Virus record (IMG/VR): IMGVR_UViG_3300035698_022014
Location: 1 to 64,000 of that record
Source: a virus
Length of the DNA stretch: 64,000 nucleotides
Direction: 5' to 3' (one strand)
The position numbers and the translations under genes were made by a program. The notes under the pieces were generated by a model. It was not told the origin of the DNA. It did no database searches and worked only from the letters and a program-made list of their open reading frames with translations. Positions 34,147 to 47,466 of the stretch are shown piece by piece. Positions within the stretch are counted from its first letter, which is position 1. The number at the start of each line of letters is the position of its first letter.

Positions 34147-34362
34147 TTAAATGTCATCATCGTTAGTATCGTCTGCTTGGTCAGGCTGCACTTCGGTGGC
34201 CTTAGCAGTGTGGCTCTTTACAAACTCTGCAAACTTCTCGCGTACAGTTCCCACTGCAACTAACTCGTTTCCTTTGAACGAGCCACGCTCTGTACACGTA
34301 TCGATGATATTGACCATCATCGTGAAATCGTTTAGTGTCAGGCTGTTTTGTAGATCAGTCAT
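34147..34362 (-). CDS. Conserved small phage hypothetical protein
   Basis: IIDTCTERGSFKGNEL..VG; AAGGA RBS. Confidence 0.65.
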   Translation of the reverse strand: MTDLQNSLTLNDFTMMVNIIDTCTERGSFKGNELVAVGTVREKFAEFVKSHTAKATEVQPDQADDTNDDDI

Positions 34363-39160: not shown

Positions 39161-40872
39161 TTATTTTGTATACTTCAACTTTCCACAATCATACACCTTT
39201 AAAAACCCATGATCAAGTGCGTTCTGATGCTCTGTCAATTCGGGACAAAAAGTGTCAGGATATTTTGCTTGGAGTTTAGCCCTTGTCATTTGTCTCCGAG
39301 GGATTCTCCTCTTTGTAGCTCTACAGTAGTAAGTGTAATCTGGTTTTGTCTGATGAGCCAGATTCATCCCCGACTTTTGATATATGTTGTTTTCAAAATC
39401 AGTCCACAACAAATCAGCATACGTGTAGACGTTAGTGACATTTGACATTATTTTTGATAGTCCACCCACAACAGGGAGTTTTGACGCAAATCTTGTAAGG
39501 TCGTGACTGTCACCATACCGTTTAAATGTCGCAACAGAAACCAACTGACCCTCATGCTCGAGGCCTATGTTGAAAGAGTGATTGACATGCCCTTGAATGT
39601 GATGATGCTCGAGAAACTCCTTCAATCAACATCATATACTACTTTTGTCTTTCTTGCCCCTATAGATGTGTCTGATGGCTCCAAAAGAGACATGATTTTT
39701 CGTCGGATTAGATCTGGACCATCTCTTAGATCATCTTCAAATAGGTGGATCAATCTTATGCCATTGTGTGCAGCATCTTTCTTTTTGTCTAAATGATAAT
39801 TTGTAGGTTTGAATTTCTCAGAATGCCAATAACAACCGTTTATTTCAAACCCTATGTTATAATCAGGGAGAAAGATATCAATCTCCTTGCGGTCACTTAA
39901 CAATGTTCTATCATTGAATATAGGGGAATAATCGGCTAGCCATCCACTAACTAAATGCTCGTAGGATGAAGGTTGTCCAATTCCCTTTCTCAGAATGTCG
40001 AAACTATCAAGCATCTCTGCTACAATAGGGTGGCTACATCCTAGAAATTCGCCCATTTGCTCGAGTGACATCGTTTTATAAAGTTCCTCCAACAGAACTT
40101 TGTCGTAAAGACCTTCAATGTTTTCTCTTGGCGTTCCTTTTGTAAACACGCCCAGTTTGCGTATTTGTGTGTTGATTGTGTGATTCTTGACATTGTATTT
40201 TTTCGCAATTTGTGGTATTGTGTATTGCTCTCTTAGTTTACGTAGAGTATCAGCACTCTGTATATCTATATGAATCTCTACATGCGTGTTTCTTTTTGTG
40301 TCTTCTCCAGACTGTTTAATAATGTCTGATGCTGTCTGAATGCTACAGCCAATTTGTTTTGAGCATTGTGTAACATTAGAACCGCTATGCCACTGTTTCA
40401 ATATCTGTGTTTTGACACTCTCTGTATCGAACTTAAACTTGTCAAACTTTTTGTACTTTTTGGCCCACTTGGTTACAGTAGAGGGTGCGTGTCCTGTAAT
40501 TGCTGATATTCTAACAATTGTCTCGCACGTATCGAATAGGATAGGATCGAAAGGGATTGATTTAATTGCAACAAGATTGCTAATTCTCACAAACCTTCGA
40601 ACAGAATCAACTGGAACCTCTAACCTATCTGCAACGACTCTACAATTGATAACTCCACTAATATAATCGTCCTGAAACTCACAGAACCTACGCGTGACAA
40701 TATCATAGAATGTCTCTTTCAAGGTTACACCCCAACGATCTGCAAGCTCCTGCACAGACGAGGATGATACGCCGTACGTATTTGCAATGGAAGAGAAGCT
40801 CTCCCCTGAATCAATTAGATCCTGAAAAGAGCTTCTAGTAAGAACAGACGTAAGTGTTCCTCTCTTAGACAC
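39161..40872 (-). mobile_element. Free-standing homing endonuclease-like gene (HTH repeats + PD-(D/E)xK, Hef-like), broken into 39622-40872 and 39161-39625
   Basis: EIDIFLP...GFEINGCYWHS; IGARKT // KEFLEHHHIQG...KVYDCGK, usually one polypeptide; -1 junction at TTGA 39622-39625. Confidence 0.7.
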
Positions 40873-41579
40873 TATGCGCGATTACCTGCAAACTGCTGCT
40901 GCATCTTCACATTGTCAAAGAACTCTTGCTTGACACTTTGGTTGAAGAATTGTCCCCTAAGTTCCGTTGTCTGAGTCAATGAGCTGTTTGCCATCACTCC
41001 TCGTGTGGAACAACATCCGTGTGTAGCTTGGATGTAGACAGCAACATCGCGCGTTTCTGTTGCCTTGCTGATCTCGTTAGCAATGTCCATCGTCAACTGT
41101 TCTTGGAGTGTTCCACGACGTGCTGCATGCTGAGCAATACGAATATACTTCGAGAGTCCGATCACACTTGACGATGGTAATACTCCGATGTATGCTACAC
41201 CTTGAACGTCCTTGTGGTGGTGACTACACATTGAGTGGATCTCTGCACGAACAACAATCATTCCGCCATACCGTGTATCAGGATCAGTGTTTGGGAATGA
41301 AGTTACAGGTGGTGGTGGTGCGTAGCGACCTTGCATCGTTTCGTTGATGTACATCTTTGCAAGACGTTTTGCTGTTCCCATTGAGTTTGGATCTGTGTTG
41401 CGATCGATAATTAGGGAGTCGAGTACACCTTCAAACTTAATAGCCAATTCATCGATCAGCATGGCCGTTTCACCTTCTTCAATGAATGTCGATATGTTGT
41501 CATTTGCCCAGAAACGGCTATTACTATCTTCTAGCCGCGCTCGTATTGTATCGGAGATTGATTTGTTTTCTTTCGTCAT
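40872..41579 (-). CDS. folE: GTP cyclohydrolase I
   Basis: TAKRLAKMY, SMCSHH, GLSKY.R, LQEQLT, HGCCSTRGV. Confidence 0.95.
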   Translation of the reverse strand: MTKENKSISDTIRARLEDSNSRFWANDNISTFIEEGETAMLIDELAIKFEGVLDSLIIDRNTDPNSMGTAKRLAKMYINETMQGRYAPPPPVTSFPNTDPDTRYGGMIVVRAEIHSMCSHHHKDVQGVAYIGVLPSSSVIGLSKYIRIAQHAARRGTLQEQLTMDIANEISKATETRDVAVYIQATHGCCSTRGVMANSSLTQTTELRGQFFNQSVKQEFFDNVKMQQQFAGNRA

Positions 41580-41692
41580 GTTTGTAGTGCCTTTCAGATT
41601 GTGTTTTATGTCAGTGGAAAGGAGCGAGGACTGACACACTCGGCCAACAGAAAAACCTTACGGTGCAACCTGTTGGAAAGTCTTGTTGCTTT

Positions 41693-42133
41693 CTATTGTT
41701 GTTCCCATGGGAACGTGGCCCACGGTGCATCAGCCTGCAACATCATAGCTGTCACACCACTGTTGAATATGCTGTCTACTTTTGTAACAAGTGATGCATA
41801 CATGACGTTGTCTGTGCCACCATACGCACTGCTTATTGAGCTAAAAGTATGACCAGTATCATTGATATCATCAACAAATACAACTCTTTTACCTGCTTTT
41901 ATGCTTTCTTTTAGTGTGGAGTTGTGCTCGCACTTCTGCACATCACGTGTTTGCCAGACAATAGTTTGAAGTGGTACCTCAAGATGGTGTGATAGGTAAA
42001 GAGCAGGAAGAAGCCCCCCTCTTGTAATTCCTACAATAATGTCAGGACGATGTGTCTCAACGTGCGTCCTCAGGTGTTTGCACATAACATCAATATCATT
42101 GTAGCTGATATACATTTTAGCGACTATGCTCAT
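41693..42133 (-). CDS. Type I phosphoribosyltransferase (Gpt/HGPRT-like)
   Basis: VGITRGGLLPA, VVFVDDINDTGHT (PRPP loop), WATFPWE. Confidence 0.9.
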   Translation of the reverse strand: MSIVAKMYISYNDIDVMCKHLRTHVETHRPDIIVGITRGGLLPALYLSHHLEVPLQTIVWQTRDVQKCEHNSTLKESIKAGKRVVFVDDINDTGHTFSSISSAYGGTDNVMYASLVTKVDSIFNSGVTAMMLQADAPWATFPWEQQ

Positions 42134-42203: not shown

Positions 42204-43088
42204 TTACGCTAAACTAGCATAGAGGTGGATCTGAAGATTGAGAACGTAACCATGTTCGATGCAGTATTGTGCTGCATATTCATGATTGCGTTGATTTGCA
42301 CTCATGTCCAACAATCCAGGTTCCCAGAAGCTAATCACCTCATCGACTGTAGATCTTTCTCCGATCTCAATTCTGTTTGCTCCACTGTTCCGCAACTCCT
42401 TACTCTTTATTGGCTCGTCGTTGTATACGTTCATTGGACTGATGTAGATTGGCTTGTTTGTCTTTTTGTGCTATTCTTGTGCCCACTCTGGGATTGAGCT
42501 GTATGGACTGTCCGGATCCGCTTCCATCACGAACTTCAAACAATCTGCATCGATCATGTTGTCTTTGTGTGGTTTGATGTACTTGCCCATCATTCCACCC
42601 TTCTCAATGCACTTTGGACTCATAACCAAAGTCGTTGTTTTCGGAATGCTTGCTTGATGAACGATCCCATTAGACTCGATTTGAGTATTCTTAAATACCT
42701 TATTCATCCGTTCCAACAGCGGTCCAATATTCTTCTGTAAGAGAGGTTCGCCACCCGTCATTACAAGAACCATTTGCTTTTTAATTCCCAGAACCGGATC
42801 ATGCAAAGTCCAATTAGGACGATTTATTCCTTTGTCTGAATAGAATTTGTCTATTGCTGTTTCTATGTGAGCATCAATCTCATCGAACGTCATCCAATCA
42901 CCATCATCAAAGAACGTGTCACAAAAACTACATGCTAGATTACATTTTGCTAATCTAACAAAGAAAGCTGGTTCACCTCGGAACGGCCCTTCTCCTTGTA
43001 AAGTCATGAACATCGATGTGACGAATAATTTGTGTTCTTCTACGTCCTTAAAATATTTCTGTCCTACTATCTCGTTTTGCCCAAACAT
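42204..43088 (-). CDS. queE: 7-carboxy-7-deazaguanine synthase QueE with in-frame TAG at 42471-42473
   Basis: TLQGEG, CNLACSFCDT, TGGEPLLQ, ESNG, SPK, LKFV, LNLQIH; the two track ORFs share a frame across one TAG (294 aa if read through). Confidence 0.9.
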
Positions 43089-43246
43089 GTATAATTGTCC
43101 TTATTTATTGAGTGTTAAATTTTCATCGATCAGTTGAAACTGTGTGTGGTTCACTTTACGGTGCGCCACGAGAACAGTCATAACATCTTATATTTTGTTT
43201 CTGTTGTACTTTTATCTGAATAGGTTACAATTTTTGTTAGATGTGA

Positions 43247-43834
43247 TTAGGATCCAAGACGCTCAATCGCATCGCGTGGCGCTTCCCAATCCCACCGCGA
43301 TTTGATAGGAAGAGTTTCATGGCCACTGTCAATCTTACTGTTTGCATCTGCAAAGGCTGTTTGTTTATCTACTTCGCACATTGAATCGTTGCGGTTGTGC
43401 TCATATACACGTACGCGCTCTACGTAACAGCGTCCGTCCGTTACCTTATATACGTAATGGTTGACGTGTTCCCAGATAAACAGTGAGCTCATTTCCATAG
43501 ATACGCCGCTTGGCAATACTCGCAACGTGCCAAGTATGCCACCAGGTGCTGTCAGTTCAGACGTGATTTGTCCAAGTCTCGGATCGTCGGCAGGAAGGAC
43601 TGTGACATGATCGAAGTAGTATTCGAGGAACTGTTTGACAGGACCAAGTTCGCCAAACGGAACGATCCATCCATGTTGATCAATTTCTCCTGCAAATGTA
43701 AACTCAACTTCACGATCATATCCGTGAACACTTGCACAGTCGCCAGGTGTCCCGTCAGGATTCTTGTCAAAATATTGTGCATGACCACATGGAAGGTACT
43801 TAAATACCTTCGTCGCCTTAATCTGTATTGCCAT
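43247..43834 (-). CDS. queD: 6-carboxy-tetrahydropterin synthase QueD
   Basis: CGHAQ...CASVHGY, GWIVPFG, FDH, SME, RVYEH. Confidence 0.9.
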   Translation of the reverse strand: MAIQIKATKVFKYLPCGHAQYFDKNPDGTPGDCASVHGYDREVEFTFAGEIDQHGWIVPFGELGPVKQFLEYYFDHVTVLPADDPRLGQITSELTAPGGILGTLRVLPSGVSMEMSSLFIWEHVNHYVYKVTDGRCYVERVRVYEHNRNDSMCEVDKQTAFADANSKIDSGHETLPIKSRWDWEAPRDAIERLGS

Positions 43835-43841
43835 TGTAATT

Positions 43842-43894
43842 ACTCCTTTGATAGTCGGTCGGAGTGTTTAGAGAGGGTCGATCCGTAGTCCTCT
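43842..43894 (-). ncRNA. Candidate preQ1-I-like riboswitch (H-type pseudoknot) in the queD leader
   Basis: AGAGG-ACUA-CGGA-UCGAC-CCUCU-CUAAACAC-UCCG; alternative ACUCC/GGAGU anti-SD helix. Confidence 0.5.
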
Positions 43895-43905
43895 TGTTTG
43901 ATCTA

Positions 43906-44364
43906 TTATACACCAACGCCGTAGTTGACATCAACAAAATTGTCGGAGATAGACGTGCCGTAATATCTATACCAACGAGGTTTAGATTGGATTCGTTCGA
44001 CGACTCTTGCTACATTCACAGCGAGATCTACACTGTTAGGAACCCAATCTTGCCACAGGCCCTCAGCTCGTTGAAACACTGTCCAATCTATCACCCTTTC
44101 TTCTGGTTTCATGTTGTAACCACGTTTACGCAACTCGGCAACGAGGCTATGGTACCTGTTAAAAAGATACAGGCCTTTGTCATAGTGAAAGGTTACGTGT
44201 CCCTTATTTAGCGTATAATTCTTAGGGATTCGTCCTTTGACTAGTCCACTTTTTGAGTCTAATGTGCGTCTCAGAGATGCATTGACCATAGGCAATTCCC
44301 TATATTCAGCCATTGCATGTTGGTCTGTCAGTTTCGACGGAGGTATCACATTAATTCTTGTCAT
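43906..44364 (-). CDS. denV: Pyrimidine-dimer DNA glycosylase (endonuclease V)
   Basis: MTRINV..LTDQH..AEYRELP, YTL..GHVTF.YDK, ELRKRG, KPRWYRY. Confidence 0.93.
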   Translation of the reverse strand: MTRINVIPPSKLTDQHAMAEYRELPMVNASLRRTLDSKSGLVKGRIPKNYTLNKGHVTFHYDKGLYLFNRYHSLVAELRKRGYNMKPEERVIDWTVFQRAEGLWQDWVPNSVDLAVNVARVVERIQSKPRWYRYYGTSISDNFVDVNYGVGV

Positions 44365-44584: not shown

Positions 44585-44613
44585 AGTGTATGTGCAACCT
44601 GGAGCCATGTCAA
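44585..44613 (-). promoter_or_regulatory. Sigma70-like promoter TTGACA-N17-TACACT, upstream of denV-queD-queE
   Basis: Consensus -35, 17-nt spacer; overlaps the gp43B stop. Confidence 0.7.
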
Positions 44614-46322
44614 GCGAAAAAGTCTTCCAATGTGTCCACCTTTGTGGCAGACCACCCCAATGAATCGAGAATGTTTTGAATTGGATCTAAGAACACTTTT
44701 GAGAACTGTTTCTCTCTATCAACGTAAATGTCTATTTCCATTTCTGTGGGAGGACTCTCAATGAACGAGATTATATTTTCGCGAAGAGGATTCGGCAGCT
44801 TCAAATACACAAACTTGATCTTGTCTCCTGACTGTATTAGGGGATAACGGTTAACGAGGTCATTATCCACAGTCCACTTGTTTGATAGAAGACAACCACG
44901 GATGTGAATTGGACAGGCCTTCTTGTATATCGTTCTTGGATCTGCATAGCCATCCACGTCGTTGGTTCCAGAGACCTTGGCTATATGCTGAACAGGCAGA
45001 CTAAAAAACTCCTCCTTGAAGTCTCTTATAAATTCCTGAGTCTCAGATTCACCTTGTGTGACAATAATCTTAAACGCCTCAAAGAACTTCTTTCTACAAA
45101 TTTCAGGCGTAGAGCTTCTTGCTGCATCAATGCCCGTGACAGACACTTTTGGCTCATCATAGTGAACACCCTCGCTGTTAAGGACATTTAAGATGTATCG
45201 CTTCTTTGCAACAAAGATGGCTTTGTCTGCAATCTTTTCACGCTTCATTTTCATTGCGTTACGATATGCGCCCATTCTTTCAGCTAAATCATCATATGCA
45301 TCATCAAGCAACGGTTCAATCTTTTCTTTACATACCTTATCAATAAAAGACTCGCCTTGCTCGCGCGTAACATTGACGGTTCCAAACACCTTTTCTACAA
45401 GCGGACCAAGATTGACATACACGCTGTCTGTATCACAATACACACAATAATCAACGTCTGTTGTTTTGAGCACCTTGTTCACATACAAGTTAATTGCCTG
45501 TGCGGCCCATTTTGTGGATAGCTGTCCTGATGTTGTGATTCCCTCTGCCATGTCACTAATATAGTAGATGAAAAATGCATTGGCTGTACTCCCATAAAGT
45601 CCGTTCATTAGAATCTTGATAGACATTTGACTGTTGTGTAGCTGGGTTATCAGCTTTTTCAATCGTACAATTTCGTCTTTCGTTGTTGCTGTCTCAAGCT
45701 CAGACTCAGCTATAAGCATGTTTACTTTGATCTCTGCACGCTCGTCGTAGTAGCCTTGAATGATCTGAGGAATGATCCCCTCACGTTCTTTGGAGAAGCA
45801 CGCTCCATTTGCTGCTACTGCATATTTGGTTGTGTTTCTGTATTTCCCATCAAGTACAATCTGCTGTGACACATCTTCTTTTACGTTGTGTTGATACGTT
45901 TCTGGTGACATGTTGTATTGCATCATTAAGTGTGGATAGAGGCTGTTAAGGTCAAAGGACACAACCCAATCCTTCATTCCCTTTTGTGGATCCTTTACAT
46001 ATCCACCAACGATACTCGTTGCACGTTGCTCAGATGTGGACTTGACGAATGGTACACGTCCTTGATCCATTAGAGCTCTGAATATAGTTGTGTCCCACAG
46101 TCCCACAGTTCCAAACGCCTCGTTAAAATTCACACCACTCTTGTATGCAACAGTAAACGACAGTGCGAGAAGGGCTGCTTGTTCTTCGAACATCTCAACA
46201 AGTCTAGTATCATATAAGTTGTAATCTAATCCAAGCTGATGATATTCGCGATCAGCAAGATCGGAATACTTGCGATGCATTTCAAGCAACTGCTTGTCTG
46301 TTAGGTCTTTCATATCTTCCAT
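44610..46322 (-). CDS. gp43: Family B DNA polymerase, C-terminal subunit (ExoIII + polymerase)
   Basis: DYNLYD, SFDLNSLYP, KILMNGLYG, YCDTDS, KKRY; own GGAGA RBS before ATG 46322. Confidence 0.92.
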   Translation of the reverse strand: MEDMKDLTDKQLLEMHRKYSDLADREYHQLGLDYNLYDTRLVEMFEEQAALLALSFTVAYKSGVNFNEAFGTVGLWDTTIFRALMDQGRVPFVKSTSEQRATSIVGGYVKDPQKGMKDWVVSFDLNSLYPHLMMQYNMSPETYQHNVKEDVSQQIVLDGKYRNTTKYAVAANGACFSKEREGIIPQIIQGYYDERAEIKVNMLIAESELETATTKDEIVRLKKLITQLHNSQMSIKILMNGLYGSTANAFFIYYISDMAEGITTSGQLSTKWAAQAINLYVNKVLKTTDVDYCVYCDTDSVYVNLGPLVEKVFGTVNVTREQGESFIDKVCKEKIEPLLDDAYDDLAERMGAYRNAMKMKREKIADKAIFVAKKRYILNVLNSEGVHYDEPKVSVTGIDAARSSTPEICRKKFFEAFKIIVTQGESETQEFIRDFKEEFFSLPVQHIAKVSGTNDVDGYADPRTIYKKACPIHIRGCLLSNKWTVDNDLVNRYPLIQSGDKIKFVYLKLPNPLRENIISFIESPPTEMEIDIYVDREKQFSKVFLDPIQNILDSLGWSATKVDTLEDFFA

Positions 46323-46419
46323 AGAGTCTCCAAGATTGGTTATTTTTTTGTAGAAGGGGGAACCACAGTACAACGGAACATCAATTCTGACGCTTAACAG
46401 AAATTGTAATAGACGCAAA

Positions 46420-47466
46420 CTAGACAGAAAGTCCTCTACGTTGGATCTCTTCTAGTAAAACATCCCTTCGTTTTACATACGTTTCCCCATCTGTCAGTAT
46501 ATCGTCGGGGAGGTCGTGTGATATTTTTACGTCCTTGGCCCCGTCAGAAATGAATCGGTGAGTATCGACTTTGTTTCCGTGTGCCTCATAAGAAAGCTTC
46601 TTTGTCCCCAGCACGACTGCAGCGACGTTGTCGAGCTTATATGACTGCATCGTGCCATATTTGTATCCAAACTTCTTAAACGTATTCATGTAATCAACGA
46701 TACTGATACCACTAATTACATATGTTTTTTGCATCTTCTTGAACATCTCAAATGACCGTTCACGAACGTGGCCCCATGGTGAGAGTCGTTTGACAGCAGC
46801 CATTCCGAGTATGTTTTCAATTCTCTTCACAATGTACGCGATGTCAAATAGCTCGACGTTCCATCCTGTGACGACATCTGGATAGTCACTGCACCACAAA
46901 TCGACAAACCTGTTCAGCATGTCGTACTCTGATTCACATTTGTGGTACTTGATTAATGACGGATCGATTCCTGTAACGGTCTTTTCTGGATCGTAGTCTT
47001 TTGTACCGAACATGTAGTAGTTGGATGATTTAGATGATTTAATTGCAACAGACGTAATCTCGTTGTCCGCATTCTCCATATCAGGCTTTTTCTTGCTGAT
47101 ATCTACCTCAATATCGAAAGTAAAGATGTTGATCAGCGAAGGATCAAAATCAATTGTACCAGGATACATGTCATATGTGAAAGATGCGACGTAATTGGTA
47201 TTGCCACACATGATCATGTTTTGGACGTCTTTATATCTCTCTACAAATTCTGTTGCGCCCTTCATGCTATCACATTGGATAGACTTCAATGGCTTGTCAC
47301 CTATTAACGATACGTGCGATGGCTTTTGATCCCCATTCTGTCGATCCTCTACATAGAATGTAGGCTGATATTTGACCTTCTTGTAGAACCGTTTGCCGTT
47401 GTCATAACCTGTCCATAGTATATCATTTCCATACCGTTCGATCTTTGTATACATCGTGCTGCTCAT
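46420..47466 (-). CDS. gp43: Family B DNA polymerase, N-terminal subunit (ExoI/ExoII)
   Basis: FDIEV, TGWNVELFDIAY, RLSPWG, SYKLDNVA. Confidence 0.92.
   Translation of the reverse strand: MSSTMYTKIERYGNDILWTGYDNGKRFYKKVKYQPTFYVEDRQNGDQKPSHVSLIGDKPLKSIQCDSMKGATEFVERYKDVQNMIMCGNTNYVASFTYDMYPGTIDFDPSLINIFTFDIEVDISKKKPDMENADNEITSVAIKSSKSSNYYMFGTKDYDPEKTVTGIDPSLIKYHKCESEYDMLNRFVDLWCSDYPDVVTGWNVELFDIAYIVKRIENILGMAAVKRLSPWGHVRERSFEMFKKMQKTYVISGISIVDYMNTFKKFGYKYGTMQSYKLDNVAAVVLGTKKLSYEAHGNKVDTHRFISDGAKDVKISHDLPDDILTDGETYVKRRDVLLEEIQRRGLSV

Follow-up and report, generated by a model that had tools for sequence, protein, structure and literature searches.

The SAM-II, SAM-V and preQ1-II riboswitches are textbook H-type pseudoknots: their long loop 3 packs against a helix, and the ligand is bound at the helical junction; SAM-V is a family of marine and metagenome sequences. 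The adenine riboswitch of Vibrio vulnificus add, which folds as a three-way junction, is a translational ON switch with an alternative helix that sequesters the Shine-Dalgarno (SD) sequence. In T4-like phages, translation is regulated via leader structures and proteins (gp32, RegA, and RegB at GGAG), and the pseudoknot in the T4 gene 32 leader, which is without conserved pocket-like loops, nucleates the cooperative binding of gp32. To our knowledge, very few phage-encoded riboswitches serve the phages' own metabolism, and we know of no catalogued riboswitch for the 7-deazaguanine genes by which phages disguise their DNA.

The preQ1-I riboswitches of all types are compact H-type pseudoknots with a P1 helix of 5-6 bp and an A-rich L3 in the P1 minor groove (PMC10622847). 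A specificity C pairs with the ligand, an L1 U and an L3 A read the ligand edge, and the SD is sequestered in P2, which results in OFF logic (PMC10622847). The preQ1-I riboswitches (Rfam RF00522) comprise types I-III, with examples in B. subtilis queC, T. tengcongensis and E. coli yhhQ (PMC10622847).

The window that we analysed, a stretch of 64,000 nt, comes from a T4-like phage whose IMG/VR contig measures 75.6 kb and is about 36% complete, and the window is present in salt-lake metagenome DNA runs. Two adjacent ORFs on the - strand (44610-46418 and 46420-47466) appeared by eye to contain the C-terminal part (SLYP... and YCDTDS motifs) and the N-terminal exonuclease part, respectively, of a family B DNA polymerase, and would represent a split T4-type gp43. 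Also on the - strand, a 71-nt spacer extends from the stop of a denV-like gene (43906; a Pfam Pyr_excise match) to the AUG of a queD-like gene (43834), and its RNA reads AGAGG-ACUACGGA-UCGAC-CCUCU-CUAAACACUCCGA-CCGAC-UAUCAAA-GGAGU-AAUUACA-AUG. The promoter-like sequence within the 3' end of the denV-like gene (Table 1) would place the start of the queD transcript a few bases 5' of P1, and TTGACA-N17-TATAAT-like boxes are found in relatives at the same distance from P1. In our best explanation, positions 43896-43842 (- strand) are the 5' leader of an early queD mRNA.

An earlier note on this DNA, made from the letters of the window, described the leader as a preQ1-I-like pseudoknot upstream of queD, and the complementarities that it listed are all present in the - strand RNA. 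These comprise both strands of P1, a 13-nt loop ACUACGGAUCGAC (43889-43877), a linker CUAAACAC (43871-43864) followed by UCCG (43863-43860) that is complementary to CGGA (43885-43882), and an ACUCC that is complementary to the SD. The gene that it named queD has a Pfam match to the PTPS/QueD family, and the product scores under the curated cut-off of TIGR03367. The comparisons described below uphold a conserved structured RNA at this site and call for a revised register of P2; the coordinates in Table 1 follow the revised register.

Table 1. Features of the queD leader and of the genes that follow it, in window coordinates
Feature	Position	Strand	Basis or remark
Sigma-70-like promoter TTGATG-18-TATAAT	43905-43934	-	10/12 consensus positions; within 3' end of denV-like gene
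P1 5' strand AGAGG	43890-43894	-	Pairs with CCUCU
L1 ACUA	43886-43889	-	Family consensus N-C-U start, C and U nearly invariant
P2 5' strand CGG(A)UCG	43879-43885	-	Family covariation, helix energy, retention in L003
Junction A-C between P2 and P1	43877-43878	-	C43877 unpaired, directly 5' of P1 3' strand
P1 3' strand CCUCU	43872-43876	-	Sequence and family covariation
L3 proper CUAAACACUC	43862-43871	-	Carries family-invariant A3, A5, A7, U9, C10
P2 3' strand CGACCG	43856-43861	-	C61-G60-A59 with G79-C80-U81; C58-C57-G56 with G83-G84-C85 (last digits of 438xx)
Anti-Shine-Dalgarno ACUCC	43861-43865	-	Invariant L3 bases 7-10 and first base of P2 3' strand
Shine-Dalgarno GGAGU of queD	43842-43846	-	Sequence; pairs with ACUCC in MFE fold
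queD-like gene, PTPS/QueD family, 195 aa, regulated gene	43247-43834	-	Pfam PF01242 E 2e-14; phrog_2389
queE-like gene	42204-43088	-	One in-frame TAG at 42471-42473
Xanthine/guanine-type phosphoribosyltransferase gene	41693-42133	-	phrog_8995; NF006613 below cut-off
folE	40872-41639	-	Downstream of phosphoribosyltransferase gene

Downstream of the leader lie four genes on the - strand, queD-like, queE-like, a phosphoribosyltransferase gene and folE; the queD-queE spacer is 158 nt (43089-43246, - strand). The in-frame TAG codon of queE is TGG (Trp) in the near-identical L001 and L002, and reading through it gives a full-length QueE of 294 aa; it is either a nonsense mutation in the window variant or an assembly error. 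The phosphoribosyltransferase gene, located between queE and folE, recurs near queE in distant relatives (L062 and L102). A relative of 208 kb, rated 100% complete (L002/G001), has the same leader and a QueD that is 97% identical, and no Pfam QueC or TGT match was found in it. Searches for DpdA with Pfam TGT, phrog_20335 (the phiST DpdA3 family) and phrog_19058 gave no match in either the window's record or the complete relative; the controls of the two phrog searches also went unmatched, so these results do not prove that DpdA is absent. It is known that searches of this type can miss distant forms of DpdA (PMC10516641). As far as these results show, the pathway of the phage would end at CDG, and the role in DNA modification suggested in the earlier note is putative. 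Given the phosphoribosyltransferase and the lack of a detectable QueC or DpdA in the complete relative, a 7-deazaguanine base might be handled by a route at the nucleotide level.

The leader was compared with those of 40 loci of tblastn-confirmed QueD relatives in IMG/VR (44-97% identity), and about 25 of the 40 displayed the architecture described in the earlier note, with clear compensating changes. IMG/VR was then scanned with two patterns, one anchored only on the tail and the downstream box, which left P1, L1, the P2 5' strand and L2 free, and the other anchored on L2...L3 with the R position free. After filtering, these scans gave at least 85 and at least 42 distinct leaders, respectively, and the pseudoknot is common to at least 127 distinct leaders of phage queD/PTPS genes in IMG/VR. 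Among the matches listed for the first scan, 109/109 instances precede QueD/PTPS genes, which belong to at least three very divergent subtypes; the leaders from the second scan run into the same QueD-type protein starts. Three QueD subtypes with less than 35% identity, encoded by phages that differ in gene content, have pseudoknot leaders with the same invariant loop bases. There is one copy of the pseudoknot per locus; the genes 3' of queD vary widely among relatives, and no conserved neighbouring regulator gene was seen.

A scan of 185,579 prokaryote genomes gave one true motif among the first 120 pattern matches listed. This instance (L315) is on a 5.5-kb contig of a Bacteroidetes MAG (CAIJZG010000002.1), which is probably a phage contig binned with the MAG. 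A blastn search of 50,697 cultured-phage records with the consensus leader gave no true match, and in the cultured phages with the closest QueD, Rhizobium RHph_I1_18 and Pseudomonas pf16, queD is fused into operons without the leader. The family thus appears to occur almost only in uncultured phages. At nine loci whose QueD is 63-78% identical (L023, L408, L416, L428, L430, L435, L436, L463 and L468), the promoter is followed directly by the SD, without the pseudoknot. Since the motif is absent from several close relatives, the pseudoknot is dispensable or has been lost repeatedly. A metagenome scan for further members of the window clade found none besides L002/L475 and L003; the clade has three distinct sequences only, and covariation within it is thin.

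The P1 helix of the family has 5 bp, (A/U)GNGG with CCNC(U/A), and is 98.7% paired; its middle pair is AU in 40, UA in 36 and CG in 18 cases and is never unpaired, and the window P1 fits this pattern. L1 begins with N-C-U, with C at position 2 in 125/127 and U at position 3 in 123/127 sequences. The variable P2 5' strand adjoins an invariant U-C-R-N-C, and the stretch 3' of P1, which is 13 nt long in 127/128 sequences, reads Y-U-A-N-A-N-A-Y-U-C-Y-G-C and is followed immediately by the variable P2 3' strand. Between these two conserved segments, the R of U-C-R (L2 position 3) pairs with the Y of Y-G-C (L3 position 11) as A-U in 80 and G-C in 47 cases, with one exception that is likely a false positive; a second count gave AU 56 and GC 31, with none unpaired. 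An invariant C-G adjoins this pair. The R-Y pair was not part of the model in the earlier note, and the two pairs together indicate that P2 continues for two pairs across a U.C (or U-A) position, which leaves a true junction of only 2 nt, N-C, and an L3 of only 10 nt. The variable part of P2, starting right after the 13-nt stretch, has 3-7 bp, and the whole helix with the two conserved pairs has 5-9 bp. The junction C (L2 position 5) is unpaired and is C in 126/127 members. Other unpaired bases that are invariant or nearly so are the C and U of L1, the U opposite the last base of L3, and A3, A5, A7, U9 and C10 of L3; in all, ten loop and junction bases have this degree of conservation across at least 127 sequences.

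Shuffling of the P2 strands never reached the observed pairing (0/5000 and 0/2000). In an alignment of 82 leaders from the first scan (A2), P2 was 80.4% paired, compared with 69.2% after shuffling and 19-45% in slid controls, and its covariation was 0.306 compared with 0.134 (0/500; the shuffles ignore relatedness). A plain MAFFT alignment fitted to no structure (A5) gave 95.1% paired compared with 78.0%, and a covariation of 0.379 compared with 0.100 (0/500, again with shuffles that ignore relatedness); its pair 17/45 occurred as five pair types, with none unpaired. When mutual information was computed over all fixed positions, exactly the pairs described above ranked highest. The check that the earlier note had proposed, covariation across phage queD leaders, therefore came out strongly positive, and the H-type topology that it compared with preQ1-I is borne out family-wide. 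Mutual information further linked the P1 middle pair with L3 positions 4 and 6: a C-G middle pair is accompanied by U at L3 position 4 and A at position 6, and an A-U or U-A pair by A at position 4; this link may represent a base triple or a clade effect.

The window matches this family at the exact site. A covariance model (R2) built from 40 leaders of the UCGNC/UCCG subfamily, none from the window's clade, gave a sole strong match at 43896-43850 on the - strand (39.7 bits, E about 2e-11 by rough calibration), and the next R2 match in 128 kb had an E of 0.36. The same site ranked first (14.7 bits) with model R1, which was built from the other subfamily. A second-best match at 34193-34239 (+ strand; E 0.62) is antisense within a coding region and was treated as chance. 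The window has the L2 UCGNC and the L3 ...UCCG of its subfamily and keeps all the family-invariant loop bases (ACU, UCGAC and CUAAACACUCCGA). From these comparisons, the queD-leader motif of the window is judged to be a real, somewhat divergent member of the pseudoknot family.

In the family register, P2 of the window consists of C85-G56, G84-C57, G83-C58, a bulged A82, U81-A59, C80-G60 and G79-C61 (last digits of 438xx), and the last two of these are the C-G and R-Y pairs of the family. The variable part, CGG (43885-43883) with CCG (43858-43856), has 3 bp and the bulged A (43882), a layout shared by the 'GGGA' members of the family, and the conserved U-C-G (43881-43879) corresponds to the first three 'L2' bases. 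The earlier note had instead formed P2 from CGGA and UCCG across an 8-nt linker, which is probably wrong, as UCCG is conserved L3 in the family. The helix it proposed has -2.4 kcal/mol, compared with -4.4 kcal/mol for the family-register P2. Moreover, in L003, the closest divergent relative and the only divergent member of the window clade, an A-U pair of that helix becomes U.U, whereas the family-register helix survives with U-A changed to U.G and the bulged A to U. The CGGA/UCCG pairing is thus most likely a coincidental alternative that uses conserved L3 bases.

Unconstrained MFE folds of 85 leaders predicted a second structure in which the ribosome-binding site (RBS) is hidden. In 61-63 of these, the AUG pairs with the P2 3' strand (UGUCAUC with GAUGGCA), and the GAG of the SD pairs with a conserved box, CUURCUC, downstream; in members without this box, the same role is played by GUCUAUUU with AAAUAGAU. 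In the window clade, L028 and 11/42 leaders of subfamily 2, the partner of the SD is CUCC or UUCU within L3. For most other leaders of subfamily 2, this partner is ACUCC or CCCUC, located next to the P2 3' strand or overlapping it, and this anti-SD changes in step with the SD type, GGAGU or GAGG. In the window, the ACUCC/GGAGU helix is part of the MFE structure, and the helix energies are comparable (P1 -4.8, P2 -4.4 and anti-SD -5.7 kcal/mol). We further observed that the box CAAACUURCUC and the sequence GGAG(G/A)C(A/U)AGAGAUG are correlated, R being A with GGCAAG and G with GACUAG almost without exception. Watson-Crick covariation between CUURCUC and GGAG(G/A)C(A/U)AGAG was considered and rejected, since about 6 pairs form with either combination and only the internal loops differ; the correlation is real but may be a clade effect.

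Because the strand that hides the RBS is a component of the pseudoknot in every layout, formation of the knot should expose the RBS, which would be ON logic. The mutual exclusivity of the two folds proposed in the earlier note is accordingly recovered in predictions across the family. The anti-SD of the window shares only one base with P2, so that exclusivity there depends on an assumed engagement of L3 in the knot. Since the SD is fixed, the anti-SD helix cannot covary, and the release of the RBS is thus a step that we infer; the predicted direction of the switch is ON.

Searches of Rfam 15 gave nothing relevant for the whole window at the gathering score, nor for 43780-43960 or the L014 leader at E<=10, and 20 relatives gave no match at the gathering score; stray matches to lncRNA, miRNA and leader models were on the wrong strand and were attributed to chance. 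In the literature, we found no description of a phage queD or 7-deazaguanine riboswitch. The pseudoknot family is therefore uncatalogued, being absent from Rfam 15 and not found in the literature.

We consider that this leader, a member of an uncatalogued pseudoknot family, is most likely a translational ON riboswitch, a reading to which we assign a probability of roughly 0.55. The pseudoknot has a P1 of 5 bp, an extended variable P2, a 2-nt junction ending in the near-invariant C and a 10-nt L3, and it would compete with the second fold that hides the RBS. In the second fold, the L3 bases ACUCC would pair with the SD GGAGU in the window, and in most relatives the AUG would be bound by the P2 3' strand and the SD by the downstream box. 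A small ligand whose Watson-Crick face resembles that of guanine would stack between P1 and P2, pair with the near-invariant C (C43877 in the window, whose role in ligand binding is suggested by its position) and lock L3 and P2, so that the SD is freed and translation is turned on. Candidate ligands are a 7-deazaguanine (CDG, preQ0 or preQ1) or a pterin intermediate (H2NTP or CPH4), and a C-based readout would fit any 2-amino-4-oxo face, including those of guanine, 7-deazaguanines and pterins. The family, its base pairs and the membership of the window are shown by the comparisons, whereas the binding of a ligand, its nature and the direction of switching are presumed. An ON switch on the first committed enzyme of a pathway would be unusual if the ligand were the pathway product, and the ON logic fits feed-forward by a precursor (H2NTP, GTP or guanine) no less well than a response to a product (CDG, preQ0 or preQ1). 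The occurrence of the same invariant loops before divergent QueD subtypes makes a shared small ligand more likely than a protein partner. For the more specific proposal of a new, phage-confined riboswitch class, in which a pseudoknot of 45-55 nt senses a 7-deazapurine or pterin intermediate, which need not be preQ1, and turns on the translation of queD, we see about even odds.

The alternative that carries most weight, though we regard it as unlikely, is that the pseudoknot is real but is not a sensor of small molecules. It might be the site of a phage or host protein, as in a translational autoregulator resembling the T4 gene 32 leader pseudoknot, or a ligand-independent folding device, kinetic or temperature-driven, that sets the translatable share of early queD mRNA. 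The family sits in T4-like genomes, which are known for leader-based translational control, and the similar energies of the two folds would permit a purely kinetic partition. However, a set of ten invariant or nearly invariant loop and junction bases points to a pocket or tertiary core more than to an operator that consists only of helices; autoregulation by the protein is also difficult to reconcile with one RNA core serving three such divergent QueD subtypes, and no regulator gene is conserved nearby. It seems improbable that the conserved A-rich L3 acts chiefly at the DNA level, as a T4-type late promoter resembling TATAAATA, with flanking helices that only stabilise or process the transcript. 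Many L3 sequences of the family do read (C)TATAAAT or TTTAAATA, the consensus (U/C)UAAAUA resembles TATAAATA, so that some of its conservation might reflect a DNA signal, and the enrichment of TATAAATA in the window (7 compared with 2.1 expected) indicates that the phage probably uses such promoters. The L3 of the window itself, TCTAAACA, is nevertheless a poor match; a start within L3 would remove P1 and the P2 5' strand and leave only the sequestering hairpin, and a promoter would leave unexplained the covariation in P1, P2 and the L2-L3 pair as well as the invariant U9, C10 and G12. The octamer sites of TATAAATA are mostly on the - strand (e.g., 1524, 7308, 18988, 19549, 26882 and 53202).

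A true but diverged preQ1-I riboswitch that binds preQ1 or preQ0 and represses queD, like the bacterial queCDEF leaders, is very improbable. The resemblance is considerable: the P1 AGAGG/CCUCU is presumably identical to that of the B. subtilis aptamer, the fold is an H-type pseudoknot in which a C precedes the P1 3' strand, and the gene under control is one of the queuosine pathway. Membership in preQ1-I nevertheless fails, as RF00522 gave no match even at E<=10 on 181 nt of the window and 111 nt of a consensus relative, nor at the gathering score on 20 relatives. The earlier note had observed that the ligand-pairing type of C is kept and that the equivalents of preQ1-I U6 and A30 are altered, and both observations extend to the family: the U6-equivalent position of L1 is A, U or C (A in the window), and L3 ends in UC, the base before the P2 3' strand not being a conserved A. 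In addition, the L3 of 10-13 nt carries a conserved UC(Y)G; the SD, which P2 does not include, has L3 or the P2 3' strand as its partner in the competing fold, which would give ON rather than OFF logic; and, with no QueC detected, the phage itself would make neither preQ0 nor preQ1. A functionless chance pair of short helices, against which the earlier note had cautioned, was plausible from the window leader alone, in which the helices are 5 bp and 3-6 bp and the MFE (-10.5 kcal/mol) is no lower than that of shuffled sequences (z = -0.25). The covariation in relatives and the matches at the exact site of covariance models built without the window clade refute this explanation, leaving it a negligible probability. 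Of the interpretation in the earlier note, the structured RNA, its topology, the conserved C and the predicted ON wiring have thus held, while the assignment to preQ1-I and the register of P2 have not.

If the riboswitch reading is correct, no earlier riboswitch would have been dedicated to a base-hypermodification or deazapurine pathway of a virus, and the leader would be a new minimal aptamer of about 50 nt with a fold well defined by covariation and suited to ligand screening and crystallography. It would be a structural cousin of preQ1-I, and the natural comparison between the two would address how so small a pseudoknot can remodel its pocket and reverse its logic. It would also provide a handle on the products of phages that have FolE, QueD, QueE and the phosphoribosyltransferase without detectable QueC or DpdA, and, in viromes, a marker by which such pathways could be annotated. 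Should the partner be a protein, or should there be no ligand, the family would still be a widespread and previously undescribed translational control element of T4-like phages.

Among the known systems, the SAM-II, SAM-V and preQ1-II riboswitches share the H-type pseudoknot with the phage family, and SAM-V also shares its occurrence in metagenomes; they differ in their conserved bases and gene context, with no sequence or model match. The T4 gene 32 leader likewise places an H-type pseudoknot at the start of an mRNA from a T4-type phage, with a role in translational control, which for the queD leader is predicted; unlike gene 32, the queD leaders have loop bases that are invariant across distant phages, and QueD is an enzyme with no known RNA-binding activity. 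With the add riboswitch, the phage leaders have in common a strand shared between the aptamer and the anti-SD helix, so that folding of the aptamer frees the RBS, as predicted for the phage side; in the phage, the fold is a pseudoknot that shares L3 or its P2 3' strand with the anti-SD helix, whereas add is a three-way junction.

With preQ1-I, the family shares its very small size and H-type pseudoknot fold, a G/C-closed P1 of 5 bp and an A-containing L3, which in the phage family might occupy the P1 groove. In both, a conserved C is left unpaired immediately before the P1 3' strand, at the position where preQ1-I pairs with its ligand, and the RNA is located upstream of a 7-deazaguanine pathway gene. 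In contrast to preQ1-I, the phage P2 is longer (5-9 bp including the two conserved pairs and a U.C mismatch) and L2 is reduced to N-C; L3 has 10 nt with an invariant A.A.A.UC, in place of a poly-A run whose last A reads the ligand; and L1 starts with A in 70, U in 41 and C in 16 sequences rather than with a conserved U. The absence of an RF00522 match indicates that the phage motif resembles preQ1-I in shape without belonging to it, and by its sequence features we classify the family as preQ1-I-like in architecture but not a preQ1-I member. The SD lies outside the phage aptamer (in the window, 10 nt beyond P2), the predicted logic is ON rather than OFF, and the carriers are phages rather than bacteria.
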